IMG/VR virus record: IMGVR_UViG_3300050011_000164
Span: 20,730-84,729 of that record
Source: a virus
Reading direction: 5' to 3' (one strand)
Length of the DNA stretch: 64,000 nt
In this document: positions 1 through 43,589 of the stretch, piece by piece
Layout of the letters: each line of letters starts with the position of its first letter
Position numbering within the stretch: the first letter of the stretch is position 1
The notes under the pieces: model-generated
What the model was told of the DNA's origin: nothing
What the model saw: only the letters and a program-made list of their open reading frames with translations
Databases searched by the model: none
Position numbers and translations under genes: made by a program

Positions 1-338
1 TCGGTGACAATGTTCTTCATCTGACCGATATCGGCGGCGGTTTTGGCAGCAGCAGATTTCTGTGTCGGGGTAAGAGTTACGAACTTCCCATCGGCAGGAT
101 CGCCAATAACGGTGCTCATTCCATCCGTATTATAGTCGTCGAAGATCGCCCAATGCTCATCCCACCAATCGGCTTCGGGGGTGCCTGCTTCACGTCGGCA
201 GCCGAGGGTGTGGGTTTCGACAATGAAATCCCCGATTCTCTGGCTGATGCCACAGACTTGAGGATCGGTCTCATCTAACAGGTTTTGAGCCTGAAGAAGA
301 ACGTCCTTTGTATCAGGCTTTTGGAGAAGTGGGTTCAT
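1..338 (-). CDS. Hypothetical protein, N-terminal part only (runs off window); contains KSAAAKTAAD motif
   Basis: Manual translation from ATG 338: MNPLLQKPDTKDVLLQAQ...TQKSAAAKTAADIGQMKNIVT, open to window edge; late-type motif directly upstream. Confidence 0.7.
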   Translation of the reverse strand, partial: MNPLLQKPDTKDVLLQAQNLLDETDPQVCGISQRIGDFIVETHTLGCRREAGTPEADWWDEHWAIFDDYNTDGMSTVIGDPADGKFVTLTPTQKSAAAKTAADIGQMKNIVT

Positions 339-374: not shown

Positions 375-773
375 TTAAAACAGGGTGTGACCTTTGTAGA
401 GAGCGTGCTTCCTGAAGATACCTTTGTCCGCAATATGTTGCCGCCACTGCTCGAACGCAGGACCGTGGTCGTCCTTCATGTTCGTGGCGAGATGAATCAT
501 CTCATGTGCCATGGAACTTAGGATGCTGACCCAATCAGCCTTCTCATCCAGAACGATCTCGAAATTGTGACGGCAGTTGGGGCAGTTCCTCTCGTTGTGG
601 GGCCAAGTGGGAGTGTTTGGTGCATCCGCCCAGCCGTGGAAGCCCGTTTCTATCTCTCGCTTCTCCTCCCCCTGTCTTGCGTATCGAAGGCACACCCATT
701 CGGGACATACGCCGTCGAAAAACCGCTTATTTATGTCCTTATACCAACGGCGAAGTGTGCGGTCAGACTGCAT
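375..773 (-). CDS. SprT-like zinc metallopeptidase
   Basis: HEMIH zincin motif followed by DHGPAF; INKRFFDG N-terminal segment typical of SprT-like proteins. Confidence 0.7.
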   Translation of the reverse strand: MQSDRTLRRWYKDINKRFFDGVCPEWVCLRYARQGEEKREIETGFHGWADAPNTPTWPHNERNCPNCRHNFEIVLDEKADWVSILSSMAHEMIHLATNMKDDHGPAFEQWRQHIADKGIFRKHALYKGHTLF

Positions 774-783
774 TTGACGGCTC

Positions 784-2256
784 CTAAATTTTCTTTGTTG
801 CCTCGGCTTTCAACTGTTGAGCAAGGGCTATAATCTCGCTACGATTTGGCAGAACCCATAACGTGCTGCTTGGCTTACCCGGAGCGAGTTTTGCCATGGC
901 TTCTTGGATGTAGCGCGTCTCATTCCCTGAGACACCTGCGGATTCCCACGCCTTGCGGTAGTTCGCGTCGTTCAGGTCGGTCTTTTCCCAACGAGCCTTC
1001 CTGAGCGTCTCCGTAGCTTTCACGTAGATTGACCACAGTGATGTCTTACTTCCAACAATAACTCTGACGGCTTTCTCGATGTCGCCCACAGTCAGGGAGG
1101 CGGTCTTTCCCATCGACCGAGCTTTGAGATTCGTCGCCAAAGCTGCGGCAATTTCAAACCGAAGGCTTTCATCCGTGCGGCCTTCGATGGCAAACTGAAG
1201 CTTTTCAAGCTCTCGTTCCCCTTCCTGCACCAACCTATTCAGGTTGCTCAGGGATTCCTTTTCTTCAGGCGTCAATTCGCCTTTTTCAGGCTTATAAAGC
1301 AGGTCATGGGTCACTTCAGCCCAAGCGTGCATCAGGACGGATGCGACCTGAATCTCGATCTGCGTATCGGCGTACCGAAGCTCCTTCTTGCGAAGCGTCT
1401 CGGGACGCAAGCGCACCAAATAGTGAGTCGCCGTGTAACCTAACGTGTCGCCTTCCTCGGGCTTGCTGGCTTCGGGGAAGCTCTTCGGGGGTCGCACGGG
1501 AACGAACAGCTTGTCAATGATCTGTCCAACTACCCCTCGGTCGGCGGGCATGTAGAGCGCCACACGGCAACCAGCCAGATCGATGATGTCGTCGTCGATG
1601 TCGCGGAACGTCTTGTACAGTCTTTTCTTGTCCCGCTTGTACAATTTTTTCCTTAGCCGATCTGGGGTTTTCGCACGAGAGCTAACCACCGCCTTGATCC
1701 CCGCGTCCTGAAGTGCCTGATCTAATTTGTCCTGTACGAGGTGAGCTACTTCATCGTAGAAATCCACCTCGTGCTTGTAGTTTTTCAGGAAGGCTTCGAT
1801 AACCGTATACTTCTCACCTGCGGCAACCTTACTCGCGGCGGCTTCCTTCTGCTTTTCCTTCACCGTGTCGAACAGATACTCAAAATCAACCTCGGAAATG
1901 TCGCCCAACAGGTCCTCGCCTGCCTGTCCCACGTATGCCTCTTCAGCCTCTTCTAGCGTACTGAACCCCAGCATGATTTTGTACTCATCGAACTCGCCCT
2001 TGTCATCTAATTGCTCAACAATGTAGGCATATTCAGCATCTTCGCTGGGACCTCGGTAGATGTCGAGCTTCTCGGCGTCCCCGGCAGCCGTTGTGTCAGG
2101 GATGTAGCCGTAATCGACTTTCATCTCTGTTTTGAATGGCGTACCGTCAGGCTTTTTGCCTACTCGCGTAGACCCTTTAGGCCATTCAATTATAACAGGA
2201 AGACCCCGAAATTCGGTAGAGTGTTCCTGCGGCAGCTTGTCAGCAACGATTTTCAC
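784..2256 (-). CDS. Fusion of inorganic pyrophosphatase-like (phage InPase) domain and RelA/SpoT small alarmone synthetase domain, plus C-terminal extra domain
   Basis: N-term IIEWPKGSTR...DYGYIPDT...DAEKLDIY...FDEYKIMLGF; middle SRAKT..RLRKK, DLAGCRV, GYTATHY, EIQVAS..MHAWAEVTHDLLYK (SYNTH motifs). Confidence 0.88.
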   Translation of the reverse strand: MKIVADKLPQEHSTEFRGLPVIIEWPKGSTRVGKKPDGTPFKTEMKVDYGYIPDTTAAGDAEKLDIYRGPSEDAEYAYIVEQLDDKGEFDEYKIMLGFSTLEEAEEAYVGQAGEDLLGDISEVDFEYLFDTVKEKQKEAAASKVAAGEKYTVIEAFLKNYKHEVDFYDEVAHLVQDKLDQALQDAGIKAVVSSRAKTPDRLRKKLYKRDKKRLYKTFRDIDDDIIDLAGCRVALYMPADRGVVGQIIDKLFVPVRPPKSFPEASKPEEGDTLGYTATHYLVRLRPETLRKKELRYADTQIEIQVASVLMHAWAEVTHDLLYKPEKGELTPEEKESLSNLNRLVQEGERELEKLQFAIEGRTDESLRFEIAAALATNLKARSMGKTASLTVGDIEKAVRVIVGSKTSLWSIYVKATETLRKARWEKTDLNDANYRKAWESAGVSGNETRYIQEAMAKLAPGKPSSTLWVLPNRSEIIALAQQLKAEATKKI

Positions 2257-2319
2257 GAAAATGTCCTAATTTCCTATGGTTTTGGGGGGTCTCCGGGTAA
2301 CCCGTCGATCCAGCATCCC

Positions 2320-2340
2320 TCACTAGAAGATACGGAAAGT
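2320..2340 (-). promoter_or_regulatory. Putative late promoter motif ACTTTCCGTATCTTCTAGTG
   Basis: Closely resembles the motif at 340-360 (ACTATTGGTATCTTAAAGTAG) and others upstream of structural genes. Confidence 0.45.
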
Positions 2341-2540
2341 GACTGAGTTTTTCCACGTTGGTTGGCGGAAAATTTTTCGGCACGAATTATGGTGGAACTT
2401 GGGTATTACAAAAATGTGGGAGACTGCACCCAAAACGCGGCAGGCCATTTCCTCCCATTGGCGCTGGCGCTGCGTTTGATAAAGGGCCACTTTAGCAACT
2501 ACACGTTGCATAGATGTGTCCCTTCTTGGAGGAAACATTC

Positions 2541-3776
2541 TTGGCTAAGAAAAAAGATTCAAAGAAAGTTTCAAAGCAAACCCTCATCGCTGAAGCCCAG
2601 CGTTTAGCAACTCAGACAGACGAACTCACACGTGATTTTTTCCGCAGCAAGAGCGAGTTCAAAGACGGATGGAACATCTACTGGCCAACCTTCCAAGCCT
2701 TTCTGGCCGAAGCGAAAGTGGTTTTCAAAGTTGCAAAACCATCGCCCGACAAGCAAGTTGAGCTTGAGATCGAGAAAGTCCGCGACCGCAAGACTAACTT
2801 GAAAGCTAAATACGACGCCGCTGTTCGTCGTGCAGAACGGGCTGAAGAAACTCTATCCGTATTACAAGACCTTCGCACTCGCACGTCGCAGCATCTAAGC
2901 ATCCTACCGAAAGCTGTCAGTGGCACCAGTGAGTCGGTCGCAGTGTGGGCCGCAAGCGATTGGCACATCGAAGAAAAAGTCGATTACGCCGATGTCGAAG
3001 GTCGCAACTATTTCGATTTGAGTGTCGCTCACCATCGCATTGAGATGTTCTGGCAGAATCAAATGCGCCTGACAGACATTATGCAGAAGGACACCAACAT
3101 TCCCGTTGTCTTTCTGGCCCTACTCGGTGACTTCATTACCAACACCATCCACCCTGACGTGGCCGAAAGCAATCAACTCGGCCCGGGCGATGCGATCTGG
3201 TGGGTGCAGGAGCATCTTGTCAGTGGCATGAAGTTCGCCCTCGACAACCTCAGTAAGAACACGGTTCTCAAGGTCGCCTGTCACACGGGCAACCATGGGC
3301 GCACTACAGTGAAACAGCGCCAGAAAACGGAACCTTCAAACTCGTGGGAGAGATTGATGTACCGCGAAATGAAGATGATCTTCGACGGCGATTCAAAGTA
3401 CGGCAATCGCGTCGAATGGTGCATTGCTGATGGATATCACAGCACGCACGACCTGTTCAATGGAGCCTTCAAGCTTCGTACTCATCACGGTCACGCTATC
3501 GGTTATGGCGGCGGTGTGGGCGGCATCACGATCCCCGTCAACAAGAAGATCGCCAACTGGAACATCAACAACCCGAGAACTCCGAACCTTGACTTGTTCG
3601 GTCACTTCCACCAGTACATCGACAGCGGGACGTTCGTTACGAACGGCAGCTTGATTGGGTACAACGCCTTTGCTAACACCATCGGCGCTGCATTTGAGAA
3701 GCCGACACAGGCATTCTTCCTCATCAACAAGAAGTTCAACTCAAAGACGATGGCAACGCCGATCTTCCTCGACTAA
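2541..3776 (+). CDS. Calcineurin-like metallophosphoesterase with N-terminal coiled coil
   Basis: Motifs SDWH, LGDF, GNHG, HHGH, GHFH in order; start moved to TTG 2541 after GGAGG. Confidence 0.8.
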   Translation: MAKKKDSKKVSKQTLIAEAQRLATQTDELTRDFFRSKSEFKDGWNIYWPTFQAFLAEAKVVFKVAKPSPDKQVELEIEKVRDRKTNLKAKYDAAVRRAERAEETLSVLQDLRTRTSQHLSILPKAVSGTSESVAVWAASDWHIEEKVDYADVEGRNYFDLSVAHHRIEMFWQNQMRLTDIMQKDTNIPVVFLALLGDFITNTIHPDVAESNQLGPGDAIWWVQEHLVSGMKFALDNLSKNTVLKVACHTGNHGRTTVKQRQKTEPSNSWERLMYREMKMIFDGDSKYGNRVEWCIADGYHSTHDLFNGAFKLRTHHGHAIGYGGGVGGITIPVNKKIANWNINNPRTPNLDLFGHFHQYIDSGTFVTNGSLIGYNAFANTIGAAFEKPTQAFFLINKKFNSKTMATPIFLD

Positions 3777-8486: not shown

Positions 8487-8851
8487 TAGTGTTTTCCTTT
8501 GCGTGCGATCACCCAATCGAGATACTGAATGCCTCGCGAGTATTCTGCCTGTTTTGCGGCGTACTCAGCCCGCAGCTTACGAGCGAGCCTAAGCGATTCT
8601 GCCCGTGCTTCTTTCCGCGTCTTAGCCAAGAACCCGTTACAGGTATGAACCGCTCCCGACACAGCCTCAGGATCACTGGGATCGGTCTCTGGATGCTCCG
8701 CTGCGAACTTGGGGCTGTGGGCTGTGTAGCCGTCACCCTCGTCGCATTCTCCAGTGATTGTGATGACTTCGTAGTCCCAACTCCCGAAAATCCAATATGC
8801 CTTGTCGCCGACCTTAAGGTCGATCAACTGTCTTTGGTGCCATTGTGTCAT
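8486..8851 (-). CDS. Hypothetical protein
   Basis: ORF in operon-like run. Confidence 0.6.
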   Translation of the reverse strand: MTQWHQRQLIDLKVGDKAYWIFGSWDYEVITITGECDEGDGYTAHSPKFAAEHPETDPSDPEAVSGAVHTCNGFLAKTRKEARAESLRLARKLRAEYAAKQAEYSRGIQYLDWVIARKGKH

Positions 8852-10163: not shown

Positions 10164-11084
10164 TTACACCGACTGGGCGACGGACGTGGTGGTCGCCGAT
10201 CCCAATTTCACGTTAGGAGATACGCCGTGACCCTCATCCACCAGTTTCCGCATTCTGTCAGGCTTACCTTGAGCACCGTAGTACAGATTTGACAGGCTGT
10301 CATTCACCCCGGGCTGATCTTGACCCTCCCACATGCGTTCCTTCCAATGAACCTCGGTTGCTGTCCCCTGAGGTCCGATCTGTGGGTGCCAGACGTGCAA
10401 GACTTGTCCCGGCAGGGTCATGTGCAGCCCATACAGGGTGTCCATGGCACGCATGGCGGCATGATCTTCACCACCCCAGCCACGGAAACGTTGATCCCAG
10501 CCGCCTACAGTCTTAAATGCTTCACGGGACATGATCTGAACCATGGCTCCGTACCAATGTCCGACTTTCGTATCGGCTGTGCCGCCCAAGATGAACATGG
10601 ACGCCAATGGTTCTGGGAACGGGAACGGGCTCGCGGGATCGGATTGCAGAAGGCAGCGTGAGGCTTCCTCGGTCAGTCGATAGAACTGACGGTAAGGAAC
10701 GAACCAGAGTTTCTTGCCTCGCTTGCGAGCAGTACGAATCTCTTCGGCACAATAGAGAACGGAGTCAGCTTGCATGTAACCGTCAGCATCGATAATGACA
10801 AACACGTCACCCTTAGCCTTGGCTGCTGCATTGTTGACGGCGACCGACTTCGAGAATGGCTGACCTGTTGGATCATCCCCCATGACAATTTGCGCTCCCG
10901 GCAACTGGGTTACCCAGTACCGCTTAAGCCATTCGACATTCTTTACCCGAGGATTCGTTGAGTCGAGGCAGCGGAACGGAATTATGACACTGATGCCCCG
11001 TCCCTTACGAAATAGTCGAGATACGAGCCAACTCACAATGGTCATAACTATAACCCCCACTACCAAATCTACTGCCCCAATCAT
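10164..11084 (-). CDS. Glycosyltransferase, GT2/GT7-like
   Basis: ISVIIPF, FSKS.AVN, IDAD, GGWDQRFRGWGGED; N-terminal TM. Confidence 0.85.
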   Translation of the reverse strand: MIGAVDLVVGVIVMTIVSWLVSRLFRKGRGISVIIPFRCLDSTNPRVKNVEWLKRYWVTQLPGAQIVMGDDPTGQPFSKSVAVNNAAAKAKGDVFVIIDADGYMQADSVLYCAEEIRTARKRGKKLWFVPYRQFYRLTEEASRCLLQSDPASPFPFPEPLASMFILGGTADTKVGHWYGAMVQIMSREAFKTVGGWDQRFRGWGGEDHAAMRAMDTLYGLHMTLPGQVLHVWHPQIGPQGTATEVHWKERMWEGQDQPGVNDSLSNLYYGAQGKPDRMRKLVDEGHGVSPNVKLGSATTTSVAQSV

Positions 11085-22011: not shown

Positions 22012-24141
22012 TTAAAAACGGCGTCCCTTGCCTCGGGATACCCTGTGGCTTCCGCCGCCAAATTTGAACTTGCTCATCTGGTACGTGCGTTCCGCTTGCT
22101 TCAGGTCCATCATGCTCATAGCATCGATATTGAGGATCGGCTTATGCGGAAGTGCCTGCTGTCGCTGCATGATGAGGCTCTGCCCCGTAGGGTCCATTTT
22201 CAAGTGACCCTCATCGATTAGCCATTGCTGAACTTGCATGGCGACAAGCATGACCGCATCCACCATGTCGTCGTGGGCTCCCTTTTCCAGAGGAGCGTGA
22301 ACGCGGATACGGTACTTGGCAACCACGTCGGTCTCCACCATCTTGATTTCGTGGATGAACTTCGGCACGTACGGAAAATTAGCTGTGTGGTCATTGATGA
22401 ATGACCGTAAAGCGTAAGCCATCTCCGAGTTGATCGCGGGGGTGAGATTCACCAATTCCATGTTATGGACTTCATTTTGCTCCAACAAAGTGATAAGCTG
22501 ACGACCTGCGTGTTGATCGGTTGAGCCCTTAAAACAGGGAAGGATTTTGTTCATTTCCTTCAACCAGAGTAGGATGTCACCTACGGGTAAGAGTTGGAAA
22601 TCCTTGTACTTGATACCGTCAGGAGTTTGAATGACAACCCCCGGACCTTCGAATTGCTCGCCAGCAATCATACGGTCGATGTAGTCAAACACTAGGTGGA
22701 AACCGTGGGTTAATCCGGGTGTTGGATTAGCGGCTTGACGAACCTCAAGGTGCCCAATCGCCAATGCCGAAGCGTCGGGCCTAGTATTATCGGGATCAGT
22801 GACGTTCACACCGCCAAGATCAAGGCCCCAGAAGTAGTTAAAGCCCACTTGATCGCCATTGAATCGCGTGGTGTTTAGACGAACGCTCGCACTGGGTAAA
22901 GGTTTGCCCATGCTGTCCCACGCACCTTCAGGCTTACCATTCACCAAAACATCCGTGCAGGTTATGATATCGATGGATCGAACGAACGATTCCGTAGATT
23001 CCAAGAATTGTCCGCCGTACTCAGCCCTGAACGTGATGGGGTTCTTACGAGCTTTGTCACGCAAGAACCCTGCCTTCAATTTCGGGTTCATTTCTGCCGA
23101 TGAACAACTGAGGGCAAAGGTTGGGTTATCCTCGTTGATACCATCTTCCATCGCCATACGGTAGAGATCGTACATCATACCGACTTTCTTCAATGGCGAT
23201 GAGATGCTCAGAATCAATGAATCCTGAATTTCGACTTTACCATCCGTGCCTGCGGGTTCCACGTGGTGGAAATCGCCCGTCTGGTGAAAGTCGGCCTCGT
23301 CGATGATGGGGGCGGATTCATCGTGATGGAAGTCGCCAGCGGCAGGTGTAGCAGCATCGTACATATCTTCAGACGTAGAACCTATCTCGGAACGGAAGTG
23401 AGCGAACTCATCAAGAGCGAGGAAGAGAGATGACGGACCACGGACAGCGTTCGTAGTACAGGGTAACGACACGACTTGAACAGACGGCTTGGCAGCAACC
23501 TTGTGATGACGGTCAGCCTCGCAAGTGAACGTCAGGTTTTTGGCGTTGTTGTCCTTGATGTAGGTATGGAACCACGTTGCACGAGTGACGGCAGCCTGAA
23601 GCTTTTGGAACAAGCGACCTGCGCCCGTTTCGTCCTGAGCCAAGAAGGTGAAGTCTATCTTTGAGCCCTCAGCCAAACCGAAGAACTTCTGCGGCGAGTT
23701 GATGCACAGCGTTAGGTAGAGCTTGTAGGCGGCAATGGCCGCAACGGCTTCCGATTTACCGCCACGACGACCACAGAAGATAACCGCTTCGTTAAAACCT
23801 CTCTGTGGTATATCTCGCCAGTCTCCGACGTTGCAGCGTCCCTCTTCGTGGACGATATGGAGATACTCTTCTTCCGTGACCGTGCAGATCAGTTCATCGC
23901 GGAAGGGGTTCCACATCTCCACCATTCCCCAGTTTTCGATGGCGTCAGCCCACTTGGGACGATAATCAAACGGGACGGCGAAGAGTGCCTTGATGAGGAC
24001 TCGCTGAACGGGACGCAGGACGATACCCGTCCCTCCCGGTCCTTCAATGAAATCAATGGCATTGATCTTCCTTGTCGCATCAGGCAGGATGTTGTCTGCG
24101 ATCTTTGTCCAAGCTGTATTTTTGACTTTCTTATCAGCCAT
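22012..24141 (-). CDS. terL: Terminase large subunit
   Basis: Walker A CGRRGGKS, Walker B LALDEFAHF, ISSP coupling motif, nuclease GLDLG...HDDMVDA; start placed at MADKK. Confidence 0.88.
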   Translation of the reverse strand: MADKKVKNTAWTKIADNILPDATRKINAIDFIEGPGGTGIVLRPVQRVLIKALFAVPFDYRPKWADAIENWGMVEMWNPFRDELICTVTEEEYLHIVHEEGRCNVGDWRDIPQRGFNEAVIFCGRRGGKSEAVAAIAAYKLYLTLCINSPQKFFGLAEGSKIDFTFLAQDETGAGRLFQKLQAAVTRATWFHTYIKDNNAKNLTFTCEADRHHKVAAKPSVQVVSLPCTTNAVRGPSSLFLALDEFAHFRSEIGSTSEDMYDAATPAAGDFHHDESAPIIDEADFHQTGDFHHVEPAGTDGKVEIQDSLILSISSPLKKVGMMYDLYRMAMEDGINEDNPTFALSCSSAEMNPKLKAGFLRDKARKNPITFRAEYGGQFLESTESFVRSIDIITCTDVLVNGKPEGAWDSMGKPLPSASVRLNTTRFNGDQVGFNYFWGLDLGGVNVTDPDNTRPDASALAIGHLEVRQAANPTPGLTHGFHLVFDYIDRMIAGEQFEGPGVVIQTPDGIKYKDFQLLPVGDILLWLKEMNKILPCFKGSTDQHAGRQLITLLEQNEVHNMELVNLTPAINSEMAYALRSFINDHTANFPYVPKFIHEIKMVETDVVAKYRIRVHAPLEKGAHDDMVDAVMLVAMQVQQWLIDEGHLKMDPTGQSLIMQRQQALPHKPILNIDAMSMMDLKQAERTYQMSKFKFGGGSHRVSRGKGRRF

Positions 24142-24161
24142 ATATAAAAGGAATTGGTAGT
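24142..24161 (-). promoter_or_regulatory. Putative late promoter ACTACCAATTCCTTTTATAT directly before ATG
   Basis: Closely matches ACTACCAAAGTCTTTTATAG (39562) and ACTACCAAACGCTTCTCTCAG (38018-38039). Confidence 0.5.
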
Positions 24162-24178
24162 AGGAGGATTTGGGGAGG

Positions 24179-24352
24179 TTATTCGCCGCGTTCGTACTTG
24201 CAGCCTTCACAGTCGAGTGGACAGGGGGTGGGCACGTAGCAGGTATCACAGATGAAGTATTTGGTGAAATCTTCGCCGAAGAGTTCGGCCATAATCTTCA
24301 ACTTCTTTTCGAGGTCTTCGTCGAGAGGATTATCGCATTTTATACAGTTCAT
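24179..24352 (-). CDS. Small Cys-rich protein (57 aa, not in ORF track)
   Basis: Manual translation MNCIKCDNPL...ICDTC...CPLDCEGCKYERGE. Confidence 0.55.
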   Translation of the reverse strand: MNCIKCDNPLDEDLEKKLKIMAELFGEDFTKYFICDTCYVPTPCPLDCEGCKYERGE

Positions 24353-24426: not shown

Positions 24427-24501
24427 TGGAACCCGCGACGGGACTCACACCCGCAACTCCTTCGTTTAGAATGAAGTGCTCTGCAATTGAGCTACGCAGG
24501 T
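24427..24501 (-). tRNA. tRNA with CUA anticodon (amber suppressor-type), atypical D and T loops
   Basis: ACCTGCG TA GCTC-AATTGCA-GAGC A CTTCA-TTCTAAA-CGAAG GAGTT GCGGG-TGTGAGT-CCCGT CGCGGGT T CCA; 75-nt cloverleaf with encoded CCA. Confidence 0.8.
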
Positions 24502-25585: not shown

Positions 25586-28500
25586 TCATTCTTTCGTGCC
25601 GCATATAAAACTGTATGTCGCGATCAAGCTCTCGGTGTCGATGTCATCGATACGGACGAAGACTTCGTACACGTAGCCGCCCTCTTCACCTTCGTGCCAC
25701 ACCGCACCCTGAGCCGAGGAGCTATTGATAGCGTCCTTGATCTCGCTGTCGGTGAGCTTGTTCATCAGGTACTTCACGCGGCTCGCCTGATTGTAGATAT
25801 TGAAACTCGACAAACCTTGCGGCTGTTCGACCTGAGCCAGTTGGATTTCACCCTTGCCCGGGACTTGGTTCAACATCGGACGGTAGGTGACCTTGAACAG
25901 TGCCACTAGGGTAGCCGCAATCTCACCGCAGACGTACTGAAGGAAGATTGAGAACTGCTTGGCTTCGTCGGCACCTGCGACCTTGCCCAGCTTCAGGCTC
26001 TTCAGATAAGCTAGTGCGGAACCCGGACGTACAAACCCTGCGGCTTTGCCGCTTGCGAATGCTTTGCCCGGCACCCCCGTTTGCTGACCGTAAAACTCGT
26101 CCGTAAACATCATACCACGGATGTCATTCTCTTTGCGGAGTGGAGCACCTTCGAGCACTTCAGGCTTGCCATCACGACCGATGCCAGCAGCCGCAGCGGG
26201 GCTGGTGCTGACGTAGGCGATGATGGTGGTGTCAAGAGCACCTTCGAGAGCGGCTGCAAGAGCTATCTCCTCTGGAACTTCGTCCTTGTCACCAACGATG
26301 TCGGGATACTGCATCGGGGTGTTGGTCTGGTTTGGATAATCCACGAGTTCATGCTGAAGCTCGGGGGCGATTTCGCGAAGTACCTGACCCGGGAAGAAAA
26401 AGTTGAAGCCTGCTTCCTTTTCGATCTCTTCGGGAGTCTTAGCCGCACCTTCGCCCGCATGAACTGGGGGAAGTCCTGCCGCTTCTTCTTTGTTGTATTT
26501 GTCCACGGAATCAATTGCTCCTTGTTCGGAATCGCGGATTCCGATGAATTGCTTGCCCTGATTGACCTGCCAGCGAGTGGGGCTAACCTGATCGTATGTG
26601 TATGGTTCTGCTGCTGCTTTCTTCACGCCCTTACCTCCTGCCATATAGTCCTCGTCATCCCAGCGCAAACCGTGCTTAGCTAAGATTTGCAAAGCTTCTT
26701 CTTTGCTCGGCCCGCCCATGACACCCAGCATCGCTGGGTTCATCTTGAGGGAATCGATTGCGATGCGAAGCTGGTGCTTCTCAGGTACGCTCATGGCAGC
26801 CACTCTTTTCAATACTGCGGTTGCTGTCCTGAGGGATTCCATTTTGATGCCCATGTTGTCCAACATCTTGTCGTCCTGCTTATTCGTCTGTGGGTACTTG
26901 TCGGGGTTCTCCGCACGCTCGGATTCCATCTCCGCAGTGGCGATCTCTTCCCAGTTAACTTCATTTGAGGGCTGTTCCCAATCGCTCTGCCCACCCGCGT
27001 CGTACCACATGTTCGTGATACTATCGACGAAATCACGAGCCTTGTTGCCGCTCGGCGATTTCACCACGCCTTCGAGTTGCTCGCGTTCGTGCTTTCCACG
27101 CTCACCACGGGCATTCTCGGCGTTCTCCGCATAGAACTTCTTACTCTGCTCACCGAACTTCTTGAAGAGGCGGGCGAACTGACCTGCCAACTCCTTCGGG
27201 GTCATTTTCTTCTTCAAGGCATTACGAACCAAATTGTGGAGCGTCGTAAGCCCCGCCGAGTCGTTGTTAATCATCAGGGCAGTGTGACCTGTGATCCAAT
27301 CGTCGTAGCCGAAATGGTCCGCCGCCATCTTAGCCAAGCTCATCATGCTGGCTCCCTTAGAGGGCTCCCACTTTACAGTGCAACCTGCGGGACAATCCAC
27401 TGGGTCCTGTAGCCGACCTTCATACGTCCCATCCGCAGCATACGCCACTGGAACCATCGGTGGCTGGGGCTTCGGCGGTACGGGCGACGGTGGTTGACCC
27501 TTCATCTGGCGGCTACGGTTCTGCGAGATGATCTGGTTACGCTCCTGTACCAACTTCTGGTACTCGGCGTATGACGTTGCTGCCAGTTTTGCGGAGGCGT
27601 GCTGCGTCATGTACCGCTTGTAATCGTTCGGTCCCTTTTCCTTACCACCCCAGTATGCGTCGGCATCCGCCAACTCTTCGGAACGCTGGCGGCGAAGTGC
27701 GGGACTGTTGGGGTCCTGTTTCGTCTCAGACGGCGGATGCTGAATGGTCTGCTTCTGATACGGCTGCATCTTCCACAGGTACTTTTCAACAAGCTTGTTG
27801 ACTGCCGCTTCAGGTTTGGGGATCGCAGCGTACTCCTTACGGAAACTGTCCGCATCCGTCCCACGAAGAACGTACTCACGTCCATTCATGGTCAGCAGCA
27901 TGTGGAACCCCTGCTCATCCTGACCCTGTGCCACGTTAATTGCGGCGGTACGAACCATGTGCAGATATTCCTGCCCAGCCTGCTTGAGGTTTGCCTCATT
28001 GAACAAACTTGCGTTCTTAAGAAATGCCGCCTTGAGTTCGTGGTATGTGGCGATCTTTCCCTTGCCGTATTTCCCGCTCAGGATGTCGTCAAGCTGCTGT
28101 TCGGTAATCTTGAAATAATCCATGCAAGACTGACGGCCCATGCCCGAAGTGTACTGACCGCGAACCCGAGCAACTGTGTCGGGACTGGGGGCAGCGCCTT
28201 CGAACAGGCTTTTGTGGCCTGCGTAACCTTCTTGCGGACGCTCTGCGTGCTTTTCCATATTCGGGGTTGCTGACAAGCTCGTACCTCCAAACATACCGTT
28301 AGCTGAAGTGTTTTCCCTCGGGTGCTGCTTCTCACCACCGATAGGTTGTTCTTTCTTACCTGCCTCGATCCCACGACGCGCATACTCTGGTTCACGTGCA
28401 GGAGGAGCCGCTGGCGGCATACTGGATACGGCTTCGGAGCCACATGCAGCGCATTGTCCCCTTACACTGAGTTCTCCCTCGTTGCCGCAATTGAGACATT

Positions 28501-28927
28501 GCCATTTTTCCCGAGGCACTTCGGATGCGATGTTGATGATGATTTGAGTCCCGGGTTTAGCGGTGACTTCTTGTGCGGCGGCGTTGTCCTTGACTTCTTT
28601 GTCTCCATAAGGACCATCGCCCCTAGTCGCCATCTCATCTTCTTTCTCTTCGATGGTTTTACCGATCTCCATCTCGGCCTGAGCTTCGATGGCATCTCGG
28701 ACAGCGGAAACATTCTGGCGTTCAGGCGAACGAATTTCGCCGTCGAGTACGCCTACGCCGCTTTCGTCGTGGGAATTACCCACCAACTCATCGTTACTCG
28801 GCCCAGCTTCCGCCGTAGCTTCGGGGGTTGCTGGTTCGAGCTTCTGAGACAGATCATCGTCGCTGTGCATTAAGTCCGCCCCAACCCTGCGGGCGGCTTC
28901 ACGCAACCTATCGATACTAATTGGCAT
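25586..28927 (-). CDS. Large multi-segment (polyprotein-like) probable virion protein with repeated KxA motifs
   Basis: GGAGCAGGAAG RBS before MPISID; KHAE, KIAT, KNAS, KQAG, RTAA, KLAA, KGAS, KMAA, RVAA, KKAA, KEAG, KAAG, KVAG separate short segments. Confidence 0.75.
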   Translation of the reverse strand: MPISIDRLREAARRVGADLMHSDDDLSQKLEPATPEATAEAGPSNDELVGNSHDESGVGVLDGEIRSPERQNVSAVRDAIEAQAEMEIGKTIEEKEDEMATRGDGPYGDKEVKDNAAAQEVTAKPGTQIIINIASEVPREKWQCLNCGNEGELSVRGQCAACGSEAVSSMPPAAPPAREPEYARRGIEAGKKEQPIGGEKQHPRENTSANGMFGGTSLSATPNMEKHAERPQEGYAGHKSLFEGAAPSPDTVARVRGQYTSGMGRQSCMDYFKITEQQLDDILSGKYGKGKIATYHELKAAFLKNASLFNEANLKQAGQEYLHMVRTAAINVAQGQDEQGFHMLLTMNGREYVLRGTDADSFRKEYAAIPKPEAAVNKLVEKYLWKMQPYQKQTIQHPPSETKQDPNSPALRRQRSEELADADAYWGGKEKGPNDYKRYMTQHASAKLAATSYAEYQKLVQERNQIISQNRSRQMKGQPPSPVPPKPQPPMVPVAYAADGTYEGRLQDPVDCPAGCTVKWEPSKGASMMSLAKMAADHFGYDDWITGHTALMINNDSAGLTTLHNLVRNALKKKMTPKELAGQFARLFKKFGEQSKKFYAENAENARGERGKHEREQLEGVVKSPSGNKARDFVDSITNMWYDAGGQSDWEQPSNEVNWEEIATAEMESERAENPDKYPQTNKQDDKMLDNMGIKMESLRTATAVLKRVAAMSVPEKHQLRIAIDSLKMNPAMLGVMGGPSKEEALQILAKHGLRWDDEDYMAGGKGVKKAAAEPYTYDQVSPTRWQVNQGKQFIGIRDSEQGAIDSVDKYNKEEAAGLPPVHAGEGAAKTPEEIEKEAGFNFFFPGQVLREIAPELQHELVDYPNQTNTPMQYPDIVGDKDEVPEEIALAAALEGALDTTIIAYVSTSPAAAAGIGRDGKPEVLEGAPLRKENDIRGMMFTDEFYGQQTGVPGKAFASGKAAGFVRPGSALAYLKSLKLGKVAGADEAKQFSIFLQYVCGEIAATLVALFKVTYRPMLNQVPGKGEIQLAQVEQPQGLSSFNIYNQASRVKYLMNKLTDSEIKDAINSSSAQGAVWHEGEEGGYVYEVFVRIDDIDTESLIATYSFICGTKE

Positions 28928-31900
28928 CTTCCTGCTCCACAACTAAGTCCGCCAGATCACCGATACCGAGATCGATTGGACGTTCCTCGTCTTCTTCGTC
29001 GCCATAGCCTGCACACGCTGTGTGTGCATTCAGTGCGTCGGTGCCGAGTTCCGCGACAATCTCCAGAGTGTTCTGAAGTTCATCCACGTTATCGCCCTCT
29101 TCGTAAAGCTCACCATCTACGAATACTTGGTAGCCGTCTGTGAAGGTCAGGACTTCGACGCGGCTGTCGTTGAGCATGAAATGCCCCGGCTCGCCATCGT
29201 CACTCCAACCCATACCCACCAGCGTCTCGACATACGGGAATTCCCCGACTTCGGCTGGCATTCCTGCGGCTGCTTCTTTCGTGTCGTCCGCCGCGTCCTC
29301 GTGTGGTGGTTGTGGCTTCTGTGGTTCCACAGGAGCGTCACCGCGTAGTTCTGGTTTCGTCTCCAAAGGCGTATCATTGCCTTTTAACTGATCGTCTTGT
29401 GATTCAGGCTTCGTCGCCAGAGGCTTGCCCTTTGACTGATTGCCCTGTGGCGCAGCCAAGTCACCCTGTTGACGATTGTCGCTGTCAACGCCCGGAGAAA
29501 CGGCATCCGCTGCCTGTTCAGGGTTGCGCGGAGTTCCACGTCCACCCCCGCCGCCTCCACCGCCGCCAGAGCCTTCGCCCGTGCCGCCAGTTCCATCAGA
29601 ACCCGGTCCATCGCCGCCCGGACCCGAACCGCTGTCCGTATCGACGGTAGATGCACCGCCCGTGCCGCCGTTGTAGATGATGATGGTGGGGGTTTTAGGT
29701 TGCACTCCACCAGCAGGTTGACCAGCGGCTTGTACACTGCCGTCTTCACCGCCGCCTTCGTCACCACCCGCTGAGTTTGTGCTCGTTGGTGCAATGCTCA
29801 CAGTTCCACCCGTGCCAGCCCCGCCTGTTCCCGTGCTGGTCGCCGCACCACCCGTGCCAGCCCCGCCCGTACCTGCACCACCCATGCCGCTACCTACGCC
29901 GCCAGTTGATGCACCGCCCGGACTTGAACCGCCAGTTTCGGTTGATGTTTCGTTGCCAGAAGTTTCCGAGGTTCCATTACCACCCGCACCCGCTGGTGCT
30001 GCTACGGCTGCTGGTGCTGGTGCTGCTGGAACCGCTGCTGGTGCTGCTGCTGGTGCTGCCGCTGGAGCTTCAGCCTTCGCGGGAGGAGTAACGGCGGGCT
30101 TATTCTTGCCCTTCGTCTCATCAGGCTTGGCTGCTGGTTCATCTTCAGCTTCGGGTTTCTCGTCAGCTTCAACTTCAGGCTTCTCGTCATCTGCCTCAAC
30201 GGGTTCTTCCTCATCCGCCGAGAAATGCTCAGGGTTGACCGTCTTGGTCGCACGTGAGTCATTCGCCAAATCTTTCTTGGCTCCATGGTCGAGTTCCGAC
30301 TTGGCTTCGGAGATATCCCCCGAGATGTCCGCCGAGTTCATTGTCATACGGTCTGTTTCAGCAATGTCCTGTGCGTAAGCATTATCGGCTTCGCGCTGAG
30401 CTTGAACATACGCTTCTGTTGCAGCTTCCGCTTCTGCCGCAAACTCAGGGTAGACCTGACCCGATACTGGGTCGATGTGCTCTTCACAGTCTTCCGCTGG
30501 TATCTGGCAGATTGCACAGAAGTCTTGTGCGCCTGCTGGCGGTTCATCGTTACGGCTGATGGCGGTCTTCTGAGAAGAACGCTTACCAGCCTCGCCTACG
30601 GACTCCGTGGGCTGCTTGATGTCCTTGTCAACGGTGTCTGGGTTGACTACTTCGGACTTCGCTTCCGAGATGTCCCCCGAAATGTCAGCCGCGTTACGAC
30701 GTGTCAGTTCACGAGCATCGCGTTGACGCTGCGCTTCCAGACGTTTCGCACGCTCTTCATTGGTTTCTTCCGCCACATCACCCTCTACCTTGAACATCGG
30801 CTCTTCTTCCTTCGACCACGTAGCCAACGGGTTCTGGTAGGTGCCGTCGTTCGGGTAAACCGCAGCTTCAGTTGGGTCGAAATGACCAATCAGATGCTCG
30901 TTGTGCCCGCCGGGTTCCATGCTCTTGAGCAAAGCTTCCATATATCGTGCGAGGTTCGCATCATTTGGCTTACCTGCACCACGCTGTTGTCCGTAACCCT
31001 TCACGTCCCACGCAGCATCGGTCGAGCCCGGAATACGAATGACGTACTTCGGTGTAATGGTACGGCCAGCGGTCTTGCTGATATCAGCGTCCGTCTTCGG
31101 AAGGATGGCACCGTCGCCATCAGCTTCGTTTGCAGGATTGTCGGCGGTGTCCGCCGTCTTTCCCTCACCGAAGTAAGATGCGAAGTCATCCTCGGCGTAA
31201 TTTGCCGTCTTTTCGCTCGACGCCAGAATCGCGTCGTCAAAGTTGGGCTCCATCTGCTCTTCCAGAGTGATGTACTGAGTGTTCTCTCCGAAAGGAACGT
31301 CGCTCTCTTCGAAGTGACCATTCTTATCGCGACAATCGCCATTCCAACCGAGTCCGAGTTTCTCGGAGGTCGTCAAGGATGGGTGTACGCCGCCGCAGGC
31401 ACCGCACTCGTAGAATACTGCGGGTGCCGTTGCTTGAGCTTCTTCCATCTGATCCAATGCCGCGCCATTTTCGTCAGCGAGGATGGAATCGAGTCCAGCG
31501 AAATGCTCATCGTCTTCGTCGTAACCGTTATCGAACGAAGGCTCCGCAGAGCAGCATGGATCATCCTCGTTCACGGTGCTGCCGCATTCGAAGCACTTAC
31601 GCTGCTTTACCCAACCCTGTTGGTCGGCGTCCCAGCGAGAATTCTGGTTGGGGCAACCTGTTTCGTGAGTCGCAACACCGTTGATGCTCAACATCTCGCA
31701 CTGGTCGCAACGAACACGCTGTCTGGGGCGAGCATTAGGTGCAGCCGTCTTGGAGTCTTCTTCCTTTGGCTCTTCCTTCTCTTCCTTTGGCTCGTCCTTC
31801 TTCTCGGACTTACTCTTGCCACGGTTCTTCGCCCATTCGGATTTAGAACCACCCTCGGACTTTGTTTCTTTCGAGTCCGCCGATGCTCCGTCGTCGCCCG

Positions 31901-34586: not shown

Positions 34587-35129
34587 TTACTTCTGTTTGT
34601 TTGTGCCGATGTTTTCCGCTTCGCGACGAATGCGGAGTTCGTTCATTTCGATTTGGCTACGGAATTGCTTGACGTAGCTGGTAACCGTGTGCTCGTCCCA
34701 GCCCATGGAGCGGAGAGCTTCAACGCCCATCTGCAACCACTGGCCAGCGACGAACTGGAACTTCTCGCCATCGAAGTTGATGAAGTCACGCTTCGCTTGA
34801 TTGTCCATCTCAATGATTTGGCGACCAAGTTCACGGACGCCCTTCAGTTGCTCGCTGAGACTCTTGATGGCGAGATTGGCATCCATACCTTTAATACCCG
34901 AGGTTGGATTGTCCAGATGTTCGTTCATGCCGTCCAAAATCGACGCCATTTCGAGGGCGATGAGTTTGCTGAGTTCCGCCTGACTGATATTCGTGTCTTC
35001 GATCTTCGTCCGAATCTCATTCAGTTTGGAGCTAAGCTCACGCTTGCCCGGTTTCTTGACTTCCGCCGCCGCGTTGTACTTTCCTTCCAGATTGATCACC
35101 AGTTCTGTACGCTCGGTTTCGTTGCTCAT
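34587..35129 (-). CDS. Helical hypothetical protein in the late operon (terminase small subunit possible)
   Basis: TAATG coupling; all-helical character; function unverified. Confidence 0.6.
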   Translation of the reverse strand: MSNETERTELVINLEGKYNAAAEVKKPGKRELSSKLNEIRTKIEDTNISQAELSKLIALEMASILDGMNEHLDNPTSGIKGMDANLAIKSLSEQLKGVRELGRQIIEMDNQAKRDFINFDGEKFQFVAGQWLQMGVEALRSMGWDEHTVTSYVKQFRSQIEMNELRIRREAENIGTNKQK

Positions 35130-37060: not shown

Positions 37061-37064
37061 AGGT

Positions 37065-37685
37065 TTATGCCGCAGCCGAAGCTGCTTTCCCCTTCTTTGC
37101 ATTTGAAATCGCCATCTTCCATTCCGTAGATAATGCTCCACGTTTTCCAACACGAAGACGATTCCGATTTGCTATCCGCTGTGCTTGTGCTGCCCTACGT
37201 TCGGGAGTCCATGCAGCCCGCATCGCTGCTTTCATTGCGGCTTCCACTTCTTCGGCGGGTTTAACCGCAACTATTTTTTCGGTCGATGATGCCCAAGAGC
37301 TAGGTTTTTCAACTGTTGCGCTGTGACAGGTCTTCCTTTACGCTGCTCACTCCAAAGCTGTCTTGTTCTTTCCGAAATAATCCGGCCCACAGTTCCCTCA
37401 CCGCCCAGCGTCATGTTGTAGCCGTTCTCAACTTTATGACTTTGATGGAGAACGATGAAAAAGGTCTCCATCTTGGAGAGTTCATCAGCGGTCTTGGCAC
37501 GATAAATCACTTCGGACCTTGAAGGCATCCGAGCCGTACTTGCGAATAGTGCGGCATAGGTAACGATCCCCACCCCGTCTCGCTTCGCGAACGTGCTGTT
37601 GAAAACGAGCGTCTGCCTCATCTCCGACATATTTGCCGATGTAGACCCCACCGTTGATTCGATTTGTGAGCTTGTAAATCAGCAT
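37065..37685 (-). pseudogene. GIY-YIG homing endonuclease split by two frameshifts
   Basis: MLIYKLTNRINGGVYIG (frame A), shift near 37515 to EVIY...GYNMTLGG (frame B), shift near 37275 back to a NUMOD-like tail AWTPERR (frame A). Confidence 0.7.
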
Positions 37686-42741: not shown

Positions 42742-43589
42742 AAGTTTTCCTCGATGATCTTCCCCAGTGGATTCGGTTGACAATAAGTAGCGATTGTGCG
42801 ATTGAAGTTGTCATCGATTGCCGCAGCCTTCTCCTGATACGTGTCGGGAGTGATGGACTGCAATACTCGAATAAGGTCGTCATAGGTTTCGAACCGAAGA
42901 ACCCCATCCATATTGAAGTATTCTTCTAAGTTCGGACATCCCCAATAGATCGGGATCGTTTTGCTTATGAAGCAGTCGAATACCTTTTCGGTCATCCAGT
43001 TGTTATACTGGCAGTTTTCCACAGCGATGTGGTACCTGAAATCCGTGAAAAAATGCCCTCTCGCATCTTCGTCTATCCGTGGCGGTGAGCGATGTTTATG
43101 GATAGGCAATAATCCAACAGACTCGGGGAGTCGGGAAAATATCTCTTGCCTCAACATGTGTCCTGAGAGCGCGTTCATGTGGCTAGTTAAGAACGAGGCC
43201 GAAAACACTTTTGCCGAGTTCAGAGGGCAGACGTAACGCGGTTCGGGCGTAGTATACCATCCCACGTGCGAAGGTATCACAAAATCATTGCCCAGAATGC
43301 TGAGGTACGGTCCCGAGTGCAAATACTTAACGGCGTTGGGACACGCTTGGAGGATGCTCTCCCTCCACGTTAGGATCAAATCATAGAATTTATGGTTGTC
43401 GATAACCTTTTGAACCAAATCTTGGTCCGTTGGATAAGGCTCGTGGTCGTGGAATACCCGATAAGGCGAACGGTCTTCCAAGTCCACATCAGATCGGATG
43501 GATATCCCTTCTTTGCCGCCGATAGAGTGCAATATCATTGGGGGTCCATATCCTGTGTTAACCTCGGAGTTTTGATTTGTCCATGTCAT
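42738..43589 (-). CDS. GT10-like (alpha-1,3/4-fucosyltransferase family) glycosyltransferase
   Basis: FRYHIAVEN....[10 protein letters not shown]...TIPIYWG. Confidence 0.8.

Follow-up and report, generated by a model that had tools for sequence, protein, structure and literature searches.

A gene of a giant peat-soil or peat-permafrost jumbo phage was found to encode a protein of 490 amino acids, in which an InPase domain is fused to a RelA/SpoT synthetase (SYNTH) domain and a helical C-terminal tail. The gene is located at positions 784 to 2,256 on the minus strand of the window, by which we mean the whole stretch of 64,000 nucleotides that was analyzed, and its reading frame is open throughout. 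The fusion is a variant of the kind of effector described by Iyer et al. (2017; PMC5512222), who predicted for phage polyvalent proteins that their InPase and RelA/SpoT domains are packaged and then injected. We consider it a probable virion-borne enzyme directed against the host. We infer its packaging, cleavage, timing, and product, and we tentatively favor, with somewhat less than even confidence, the joint reading in which this polyvalent-type effector undergoes packaging and cleavage in its linkers, is delivered together with the DNA, and then makes a (p)ppGpp-type alarmone.

The window belongs to a jumbo-phage fragment of 84.7 kb, with an estimated completeness of 26%. At least half of the words were present in 3 metagenomes, all from peat or permafrost, and one of these could be the source itself; no RNA data set was among the 22 runs listed. 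The host is probably an Acidobacteriota bacterium, and the protein family goes back to a single origin beside Acidobacteriaceae genes. Translation starts at a GTG codon at position 2,256, with an in-frame TAG codon 12 nucleotides upstream and an AGGA ribosome-binding site at 2,264 to 2,267 (minus strand), 7 nucleotides 5' of the start, and it ends at a TAG codon at 784 to 786. Relatives covered 99% to 100% of the 490 amino acids and had the same N-terminus. No nucleotide match was identified in the phage collection, while a protein search of the phage records gave 406 matches, none of which covered 80% of the query. The family is large, with both domains carried by 111 of the 120 homologs listed in a separate search.

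The initial annotation had proposed a pyrophosphatase-like domain fused to an alarmone synthetase, and both PF18823 and PF04607 scored above the Pfam cut-offs and far beyond chance. The InPase domain, a family I pyrophosphatase-like OB fold, is encoded at 1,876 to 2,223 (minus strand; amino acids 12 to 127), and matched positions 12 to 129 of the 135 in the PF18823 profile with an E-value of 8.2e-30 and a score of 103.9 bits (cut-off 26.8). The model of the domain had pLDDT values of mostly 75 to 94, and a structure comparison with solved family I pyrophosphatases gave Z-scores of 6.5 to 7.3. Among 56 relatives, the acidic residues E44, D60, D65, D90, and E91 were conserved in 50, 48, 56, 52, and 56 sequences, respectively, and K93, Y49, and G50 in all 56. 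We take the acidic residues to map onto the catalytic positions of the E. coli pyrophosphatase. The synthetase reaction of RSH enzymes gives off AMP and not PPi, so that it offers no obvious task to a pyrophosphatase partner, which speaks against the reading we favor. The InPase domains of polyvalent proteins have been described as having 4 conserved acidic metal-binding residues and as lacking the β-hairpin insert of the cellular family I enzymes (Iyer et al. 2017; PMC5512222).

The InPase domain also matched the C-terminal region of the portal protein of Pa193 (E-value 1.9e-15), a region for which there is no density in the virion map (PMC11456595), as well as PHROGs with the names minor head protein and virion structural protein. 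Portal and polyvalent proteins in BFVD were matched too, and the genes matched in the phage records carry minor head or portal protein annotations. No viral model in BFVD spanned both InPase and SYNTH (TMq at most 0.29).

The SYNTH domain is encoded at 1,180 to 1,803 (minus strand; amino acids 152 to 359), and its match to RelA_SpoT (PF04607) in Pfam covered amino acids 193 to 324 with an E-value of 9.7e-11 and a score of 42.4 bits, compared with a cut-off of 27. Synthetases bind ATP, Mg2+, and the acceptor by the motifs R-x-K, D-x-x-G-x-R, G-Y-x-x-x-H, E-x-Q, and H...Y-K. All of the motifs listed in the initial annotation were found intact in the translation, namely R194-A-K196, D226-L-A-G229-C-R231, G273-Y274...H278-Y, E301-I-Q303, and HAWAE..H317-D..Y321-K322. 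All 56 aligned relatives have kept R194, K196, D226, G229, R231, G273, Y274, H278, E301, Q303, H317, Y321, and K322. Under the name of "five syn motifs," such elements are referred to for synthetases in PMC12226406.

In the structural model, the SYNTH domain is RelQ/RelP-like in fold, that is, like a small alarmone synthetase. The closest chains were those of RelQ and RelP, with Z-scores of 16.4 to 18.3 and rmsd values of 2.7 to 3.1 over 179 to 196 aligned residues (model residues 148 to 369), whereas likeness was lower for the long Rel (Z 13.8), CapRel (12.6), an exported SAS (11.8), Tas1 (10.2), and FaRel/FaRel2 (7.2 to 7.4). The match to RelQ and RelP extended over the whole chain, with the flanking helices included (PMC5794853; PDB 5dec, 6ewz, 2be3), and the G-loop tyrosine and the catalytic Asp and Glu described for these enzymes were conserved (PMC5794853). 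A profile of 44 sequences retrieved 8 matches among the PDB sequences at an E-value of at most 1, all of which were of the RelQ/RelP type. In NCBIfam, only sub-threshold matches were obtained, to a YjbM-type family (21.2 bits; cut-off 320) and to spoT_relA (19.9 bits; cut-off 499). Unlike RelQ and RelP, to which it is only 18% to 21% identical, the domain is phage-encoded, is joined in one chain with InPase and a helical tail, and is placed in a separate clade, where its nearest relatives are uncharacterized bacterial proteins of about 430 amino acids and not RelQ/RelP themselves. For this bacterial family, a cluster look-up and the Atlas gave only the generic name "RelA/SpoT domain-containing protein."

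The domain was predicted to form a homotetramer with a score of 0.77, compared with 0.00 for the best of 3 controls, a pass that the solved RelQ/RelP tetramers may explain. In the calibration, which used 2 copies and not 4, 20 of the 30 proteins with a solved pair attained the mark for this score, compared with 1 of the 23 that were solved as single chains. At least 95% of the contacts agreed between the tetramer model runs, and the partner pLDDT was at least 79. The acceptor substrate is not fixed by likeness in fold, and the product is not predicted by the motifs, since motif swaps failed to turn a (p)ppApp synthetase into a (p)ppGpp synthetase (PMC12226406). In the portions of the literature on acceptor specificity that were consulted, no sequence rule that separates G, A, or tRNA was found.

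Head-associated RelA/SpoT toxins are known from phages (PMC12226406, PMC12691689), including MuF-Apk2, which produces only (p)ppApp according to both sources. Furthermore, the SYNTH domain matched PDC-S33, a candidate defense family in PADLOC, with an E-value of 7.2e-8, its nearest bacterial relatives are encoded by single genes with varied neighbors in at least 570 species genomes, and the partner domains seen in its relatives comprise, among others, those of RNA-end enzymes (PolyA_pol head domain, 2H, and PNKP phosphatase). These observations speak for a toxin-type RSH, either a (p)ppApp synthetase similar to Tas1 and MuF-Apk2 or a pyrophosphokinase of tRNA CCA ends similar to FaRel2, PhRel2, and CapRel, by which the host would be rapidly shut off or rival phages excluded. 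We regard this as unlikely, considering that the fold is much nearer to RelQ/RelP than to CapRel, Tas1, or FaRel2, that the sequence profile retrieved chains of the RelQ/RelP type only, and that depletion of ATP or blockade of tRNA would also harm the replication of the phage itself. Nor was the gene followed by an immunity or antitoxin gene, the next gene being one for a zincin, and a search for HD_4 found nothing on the 84.7-kb fragment, which represents some 26% of the genome and lacks the other 74%, in agreement with the earlier remark that no obvious HD hydrolase or antitoxin is adjacent.

Like the MuF-Apk2 toxins (PMC12226406), the protein has a RelA/SpoT-type pyrophosphokinase behind a head-associated N-terminal module and is encoded by a phage. 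It differs from them in that the N-terminal module is InPase and not MuF (InPase and RelA_SpoT were the only Pfam families above cut-off), that the carrier is a jumbo phage, that a zincin gene rather than an iapK/aph1-like immunity gene comes directly after the gene, with no HD_4 match on the fragment, and that its fold is nearer to RelQ/RelP than to Tas1. With the toxSAS enzymes FaRel, FaRel2, PhRel2, and CapRel (PMC7229694), some of which are phage-encoded, it shares the involvement of SYNTH in phage-host conflict, but no bicistronic antitoxin partner was recognized, no small partner gene being present, and its structural similarity to them is lower (Z 12.6 for CapRel and 7.2 to 7.4 for FaRel/FaRel2). 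The toxSAS modules are characterized by a conserved operon of 2 or 3 genes that includes an antitoxin, or by a fused antitoxin domain, and the C-terminal tail of the present protein has no recognizable fold, so a fused regulator is possible.

The tail is encoded at 787 to 1,092 (minus strand; amino acids 389 to 490) and belongs to no known family. It was modeled as all-helical with a mean pLDDT of 70.6, and had no match in Pfam and no structural match at a Z-score of 5 among 48,161 chains (best Z 4.8). Many relatives lack it or have another sequence in its place, and it is missing from those of 374 to 456 amino acids. The further domain that had been proposed to follow GKTASL was thus recovered as a helical region at about amino acids 389 to 490, without a match to a Pfam family.

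Two candidate cleavage sites flank the SYNTH domain, SKVAAG at 1,816 to 1,833 (site 1; minus strand; amino acids 142 to 147) and the weaker candidate GKTASL at 1,093 to 1,110 (site 2; minus strand; amino acids 383 to 388). Both fall in linkers that are predicted to be flexible, with modeled pLDDT values below 50 at amino acids 143 to 148 for site 1 and at 378 to 381 and 383 to 394 for site 2. Of 72 parsed relatives, 50 had a K-x-A motif 7 to 13 residues ahead of the SYNTH helix, compared with a mean of 8.0 (maximum 15) in 500 linker shuffles, whereas at site 2 K-x-A-[ASG] was shared by 24 of the 56 relatives that were aligned, the 15 closest ones among them. The proposal of flanking KxA sites was in this way supported by a conserved position at site 1 and only in part at site 2. 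In the 490-amino acid protein alone, K-x-A was found 4 times, which is no excess over the 4.7 expected, and K-x-A-[AS] 3 times compared with 0.72 expected, a count reached in 62 of 2,000 shuffles. Over the 69 ORFs of the contig, K-x-A-[AS] was found 58 times compared with 19.0 expected, and was concentrated in the polyvalent protein and in 3 large ORFs beside terL. In Tunturi_5, a cultured phage with a TerL protein that is 40% identical, gp272 has K-T-A-A after the InPase domain. The fusion would represent a compact 2-site substrate for the proposed K-x-A cleavage code of the phage lineage.

The gene is the first in a conserved block, in which it is followed by a gene for a putative SprT-like zincin and then by a gene for a polyvalent protein of 4,132 amino acids. 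The zincin of 132 amino acids is encoded at 375 to 773 (minus strand) and contains a HEMIH motif; its match to PF10263 was sub-threshold (E-value 1.1e-4, 22.5 bits, cut-off 25.6). The AGGAG site of the zincin gene overlaps the TAG stop codon of the InPase-SYNTH gene, and 4 of the 13 related loci have a homolog of the zincin in the corresponding position. The N-terminus of the polyvalent protein is encoded at 1 to 338 (ORF 3 to 338, minus strand), from where the gene, which spans contig positions 8,669 to 21,067, leaves the window. The protein matched SprT-like, 2H/Acb1-like, ART-PolyVal, PARP/Tpt1-like, and NUDIX domains. Its SprT-like stretch, located at the N-terminus, scored 24.5 bits and had no pairwise similarity to the 132-amino acid zincin (E-value 53). 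The KTAA motif previously noted in the downstream ORF is present in ORF 3 to 338, and K-x-A-[AS] was counted 20 times in the 4,132-amino acid protein compared with 3.7 expected, a number reached by 0 of 2,000 shuffles, which together with the contig-wide excess bears out the association of the gene with neighbors punctuated by K-x-A.

Homologs of the polyvalent protein were encoded directly downstream of the fusion in all 13 related viral loci, 3 of which look like copies of one phage, and in Tunturi_5 the same slot contains InPase-GP88, followed by a polyvalent protein. On the other side, a divergently oriented gene at 2,514 to 3,776 (plus strand) encodes an exonuclease-like protein of 420 amino acids (phrog_284, E-value 4.1e-35). 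An exonuclease-like gene occupied the same divergent position in 7 of the 13 related loci and in Tunturi_5, and marks a conserved boundary of the block. Between the 2 genes, a promoter-like string is located at 2,321 to 2,341 (minus strand). It was unique within the window at up to 3 mismatches, and is an imperfect copy of the motif that precedes other genes on the contig. The string that the initial annotation called a late-type promoter motif is present, as a putative promoter only. The strict form of the motif was found 3 times on the contig, compared with a shuffle mean of 1.2 (maximum 5), and was not significant in that form.

Roughly 20 kb separate the gene from terL, and Peptidase_S78 and Phage_capsid had no match on the 84.7-kb fragment; this distance and the lack of a capsid or head-protease family on the fragment count against a packaged effector. 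Peptidase_S77 had no match on the fragment either, but it had none in any of the control genomes, which makes this result uninformative.

A rather doubtful alternative is that the protein is not a part of the virion, and that it is an intact protein with 2 enzymes, expressed after infection, whose task during replication is to adjust host nucleotide pools or the stringent response; the K-x-A linkers would then be mere flexible joints. This would agree with the absence of an adjacent structural gene, with an exonuclease-like replication or repair gene as the neighbor on the other side, with the weak K-x-A count in the protein alone, with the imperfect copy of the promoter motif, and with the occurrence of nested InPase/SYNTH variants among the relatives. 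It is at odds with the polyvalent proteins that come after the gene in 13 of 13 loci, with the repeated occurrence of InPase on portal and minor-head proteins, and with the preservation of site 1 within an otherwise divergent linker. The role of a pre-made effector, as in the reading we favor, fits because the gene is at the head of the polyvalent cluster, because InPase is found on portal and minor-head proteins, and because of the predictions by Iyer et al. (2017).

Polyvalent proteins contain disparate effector domains in one polypeptide, and a zincin peptidase has been proposed to process them (Iyer, Burroughs, Anand, de Souza, and Aravind 2017, J Bacteriol, PMC5512222). Similarly, 2 unrelated effector domains, InPase and SYNTH, are combined in one polypeptide on a virus contig, and, with only the small zincin gene in between, the gene precedes that of a bona fide polyvalent protein (ART-PolyVal, 2H, NUDIX). 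Unlike polyvalent proteins, the fusion is small (490 amino acids) and has 2 enzymes only, its linkers contain the lineage-specific K-x-A motif, and the zincin is encoded by a separate gene (132 amino acids). A direct fusion of InPase to RelA/SpoT is not mentioned in the text of Iyer et al. (2017; PMC5512222) that was consulted.

According to the packaged-effector reading, the protein would be made along with the other K-x-A proteins and then loaded into the head, and its linkers would be cleaved by a phage protease, either the head-maturation protease or the neighboring zincin. The cleaved effector would go into the cell with the phage DNA, where the synthetase, probably as a tetramer, would move pyrophosphate from ATP onto the 3'-OH of GDP or GTP, and the resulting (p)ppGpp-type alarmone would stop host growth functions ahead of phage gene expression. 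InPase may be the constant "handle" of the gene slot and could act as an accessory phosphohydrolase, as a head-associated carrier, or as both. Such a tetramer must unfold or dissociate to pass through the tail, which counts against this reading, as do the weak motif count in the protein alone and the presence of site 2 in 24 of 56 relatives. Provided that the virion contains the protein in an active form, a lytic-type jumbo phage would bring its own alarmone synthetase, and the stringent response of the host would be switched on or hijacked at entry. The benefit to the phage of head-associated RelA/SpoT enzymes is still open even for the MuF-Apk2 toxins (PMC12226406). With a large family and with Tunturi_5 as a cultured relative for genetics, the question is testable.

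In 3 of 123 relatives, the SYNTH domain was inserted inside the InPase fold. These nested relatives argue for physical coupling rather than simple separation, and they fit a coupled action better than a packaged effector that is cut apart. InPase has been suggested to target infection-response nucleotides (Iyer et al. 2017; PMC5512222), 2H/Acb1-like and NUDIX domains are present on the neighboring giant protein, and one relative unites RelA_SpoT, a PNKP-type phosphatase, and InPase. Together with the joint action implied by the nested architectures, this is consistent with a 3'-end counter-defense pair, in which InPase strips the 3'-pyrophosphates added by toxSAS from tRNA or degrades alarmone-type immune signals, and SYNTH pyrophosphorylates and thereby disables host signaling nucleotides. 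We consider such a pair very improbable, as the active site of SYNTH resembles that of an ordinary alarmone synthetase, and family I pyrophosphatases are not known to act on tRNA ends, which also counts against it.

Also improbable is a zymogen-like 2-step 3'-end enzyme that would be made late in an inactive form, cut at K-x-A in the head, and delivered as a RelQ/RelP-like tetramer, with InPase trimming the 3'-pyrophosphate installed by SYNTH. The product may in that case be either a non-canonical nucleotide, for example the 3'-monophosphates ppGp and pGp, or an RNA end with a 3'-phosphate, which host alarmone hydrolases could not reverse, and the nested relatives may represent the fused extreme of the coupling between InPase and SYNTH. 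Among the longer proteins, 1 of the 28 found, with a length of 1,422 amino acids, joins InPase with the same type of SYNTH domain.

The gene encoding the predicted fusion protein was located at positions 784-2256 on the minus strand of the window and was open over 490 codons. The source contig of 84,729 bases, of which the window covers positions 20730-84729, had an estimated completeness of only 26%, and is therefore a fragment of a jumbo phage genome of roughly 300 kb. An AGGA sequence was located seven bases, and an in-frame TAG codon twelve bases, upstream of the GTG start codon at 2256, and the N-terminus was common to the aligned relatives. An InPase domain (PF18823, residues 12-127, E 8.2e-30) and a RelA/SpoT domain (PF04607, residues 193-324, E 9.7e-11), here called SYNTH, were both identified above the curated Pfam cut-offs, which confirmed the fusion of a pyrophosphatase-like domain to an alarmone synthetase proposed in the initial annotation. 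The gene ended with a TAG codon (784-786, minus strand), and read-through would extend the protein by only six residues up to a TGA codon, without fusion to the adjacent putative zincin gene. A tRNA of the amber-suppressor type with anticodon CUA, classified as tRNA-Pyl by ARAGORN, was located near terL (24427-24501, minus strand).

All synthetase motifs that had been named from the sequence were found in the translation, and residues R194, K196, D226, G229, R231, G273, Y274, H278, E301, Q303, H317, Y321, and K322 were invariant in 56 aligned relatives. The nearest solved structures to the SYNTH domain were RelQ and RelP (Z 16.4-18.3), with 179-196 residues aligned including the flanking helices, followed by long Rel (Z 13.8), CapRel (Z 12.6), the exported Streptomyces synthetase (Z 11.8), Tas1 (Z 10.2), and FaRel/FaRel2 (Z 7.2-7.4). 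Foldseek ordered the solved synthetases in the same way, and a profile of 44 family members searched against the PDB retrieved only eight sequences at E <= 1, and each belonged to the RelQ/RelP type. A four-copy assembly of the domain was predicted with a score of 0.77, as compared to 0.00 for the best of 3 controls, with a contact agreement between runs of at least 95% and partner pLDDT values of at least 79; in calibration, 20 of the 30 proteins with a solved pair structure and 1 of the 23 with a solved single-chain structure attained the mark used for this score. Since RelQ/RelP tetramers have already been solved, this result indicates likeness rather than binding. The acceptor substrate is not fixed by the motifs, the fold or the predicted tetramer, and the accessible part of one study reports that a (p)ppApp synthetase could not be made to synthesize (p)ppGpp by motif swaps (PMC12226406).

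Conserved residues of the InPase domain in the 56 aligned relatives included D60, D65, D90, E91, K93, and the Y49-G50 pair, which fits the four conserved acidic residues described for the InPase clade in the available portion of Iyer et al. (PMC5512222). The domain matched solved family I pyrophosphatases with Z scores of 6.5-7.3. In the Pseudomonas phage Pa193 portal protein, its sequence also aligned to residues 638-746 (E 1.9e-15); the C-terminal residues 529-765 of this portal are described as being without density in the virion map in the available part of the report on it (PMC11456595). The PHROG families matched by the domain were minor head protein, virion structural protein, and DarB-like antirestriction, and its BFVD matches were to portal and polyvalent proteins; in the 406 phage records with a match, the genes were mostly annotated as minor head or portal proteins.

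Both domains were present in 111 of the best 120 homologs listed. According to the order of motifs in 123 proteins, InPase preceded SYNTH in 102 and SYNTH was nested inside the InPase fold in 3, while 15 contained only SYNTH, 2 contained only InPase and 1 was unclear. In the nested relatives (P0092-P0094, about 374-573 amino acids; L016:10001-11125, plus strand), SYNTH was inserted in a loop just after the conserved Y-G-Y, so that the InPase fold is split around the synthetase, and a K-K-A-S motif was located at the return junction. An exhaustive search identified 14,510 proteins at E <= 0.001, and the commonest kind among the best 150 listed was a stand-alone protein from bacteria, about 420-440 amino acids long, with 44-50% identity to residues 152-380 of the phage protein. 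This family was found in at least 570 species genomes from many phyla, its two best matches being from Acidobacteriota, and its members were single genes with varied neighbors (L046-L125). It is uncharacterized (P0126-P0253), with SYNTH at the N-terminus and a C-terminal consensus ending in R-x-x-R-N-x-x-V-H-G, reminiscent of an R-x4-H nuclease motif. A quick maximum-likelihood tree was computed from 88 selected SYNTH domains. The 23 fused domains formed a single clade (SH-aLRT 100), and under a provisional midpoint rooting, its sister group was 2 Acidobacteriaceae proteins (SH-aLRT 92). The origin is most simply read as a single capture of a host-type gene that was then fused to InPase.

The K-x-A motifs reported to flank the synthetase were recovered as SKVAAG at residues 142-147 and GKTASL at residues 383-388. 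Within this protein alone the signal was weak, with 4 K-x-A motifs against 4.7 expected and 3 K-x-A-[AS] motifs against 0.72 expected, a number reached in 62 of 2000 shuffles. The giant protein encoded nearby contained 20 K-x-A-[AS] motifs (3.7 expected; 0 of 2000 shuffles), and the 69 ORFs of the contig contained 58 against 19.0 expected. This excess was concentrated in the giant protein, its 577-amino acid continuation and 3 large minus-strand ORFs beside terL at 25586-28942 (6 versus 1.5), 28917-34571 (9 versus 2.8), and 35129-37153 (5 versus 1.1), the 2 of which that were searched had no PHROG match. Among relatives, which share ancestry and are thus not independent events, a K-x-A motif was located 7-13 residues before the SYNTH helix in 50 of 72 proteins (mean 8.0 and maximum 15 in 500 linker shuffles; 13 of 72 in a control window 14-20 residues upstream) and in 38 of the 55 with identities of at most 64%. 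At the second site, K-x-A-[ASG] was present in 24 of 56 relatives, likewise of shared ancestry, and most others had K-G-x-A. The linker around the first site was otherwise highly variable, and this conserved placement indicates that the K-x-A sites are real, position-specific features of flexible joints.

In an AlphaFold2 model built from an alignment of 56 sequences (mean pLDDT 78.7), the InPase domain was beta-rich (residues 12-124), and the SYNTH domain (residues 152-359) and the terminal helices (residues 447-489) were confident. Helix confidence dropped exactly at residues 143-148, and residues 378-445, including GKTASL, formed a low-confidence stretch, so that both K-x-A sites are placed in predicted flexible joints, where a protease may cut. 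The C-terminal tail, modeled separately, was all-helical, and its fold had no match among 48,161 solved chains (best Z 4.8).

The 132-amino acid putative zincin gene (375-773, minus strand) was located ten bases downstream of the fusion gene on the same strand, and its AGGAG site overlapped the TAG stop codon. Its product contained a HEMIH motif and a SprT-like match below threshold. Another thirty-six bases downstream began the 4132-amino acid ORF, which extended beyond the window and matched SprT-like, 2H/Acb1-like, ART-PolyVal, PARP/Tpt1-like, and NUDIX domains, and with this set it is a textbook polyvalent protein. Beyond the other end of the fusion gene was a divergently transcribed exonuclease-like gene. 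Of 41 related viral loci, 13 contained the InPase-SYNTH fusion, on contigs of 55-463 kb, with 3 of the 13 resembling copies of one phage, and the fusion was followed directly by a giant-protein homolog in all 13, flanked by the divergent exonuclease in 7 and by a small zincin in 4. The nearest cultured phage was Tunturiibacter phage Tunturi_5 (308.7 kb; soil, Finland), with a TerL protein 40% identical over 94% of its length. Its gene arrangement was the same, but the InPase protein in this slot, gp272 (L004:8926-10263, plus strand), ended in GP88 (PF17338) rather than SYNTH. A K-T-A-A motif followed its InPase domain, and its gene was flanked by genes for a JAB-domain protein upstream and a 1489-amino acid NUDIX/ART-PolyVal/GNAT protein downstream. 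In other relatives, InPase was joined to GGACT, PolyA_pol head domain, 2H, GNAT, ART-like or PNKP-phosphatase modules, which makes InPase the constant part of the slot and the effector the variable one. One viral protein of 1442 amino acids (L035:8162-12490, plus strand) combined a Hint/intein region with InPase and PolyA_pol, a nucleotidyltransferase head.

The protein is real and probably an active two-enzyme effector. The likeliest mechanism, to which we would give slightly less than an even chance, is that it would be packaged in the virion, cleaved at the K-x-A linkers and delivered with the phage DNA, whereupon a RelQ/RelP-like SYNTH tetramer would make a (p)ppGpp-type alarmone. Packaging, injection, alarmone-like host shut-down, and zincin processing are predicted in the available text of Iyer et al., which contains no mention of a direct InPase-RelA/SpoT fusion (PMC5512222). 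Experimentally known head-associated RelA/SpoT enzymes are, in the accessible portions of two reports, the MuF-Apk2 (p)ppApp synthetases, which have immunity genes (PMC12226406, PMC12691689). Our literature search found no paper on either an InPase-synthetase fusion or a (p)ppGpp synthetase delivered in the virion by a jumbo phage, and the word InPase was absent from a 2021 jumbo-phage survey. InPase-SYNTH is a variant, new in architecture, of the polyvalent or head-associated RelA/SpoT effectors. As noted in the initial annotation, no HD hydrolase or antitoxin was obvious beside the gene: HD_4 was absent from the contig fragment, about a quarter of the genome, and no small partner gene followed at the locus.

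The promoter motif proposed upstream of the gene was present as a string at 2321-2341 (minus strand) that was unique in the window, but it was an imperfect copy of a motif of roughly ACTACC, five bases, CTT, three bases, and TA, the strict pattern of which was not enriched (3 versus 1.2), and nothing supports dating it as late. This motif stood immediately next to the initiation codons of several genes, among them the giant gene and probably also terL. In the terL ORF (22012-24249, minus strand), the motif at 24143-24161 was located inside the 5' end and abutted an ATG codon, and the listed start is probably too early. The position of the motif directly at the ATG codons of terL and the giant gene (338, minus strand) suggests very short or absent leaders. 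Glycosyltransferase- and aminotransferase-like genes were also identified on the phage fragment at 10164-11084, 40456-42783, and 44550-45731, all on the minus strand.
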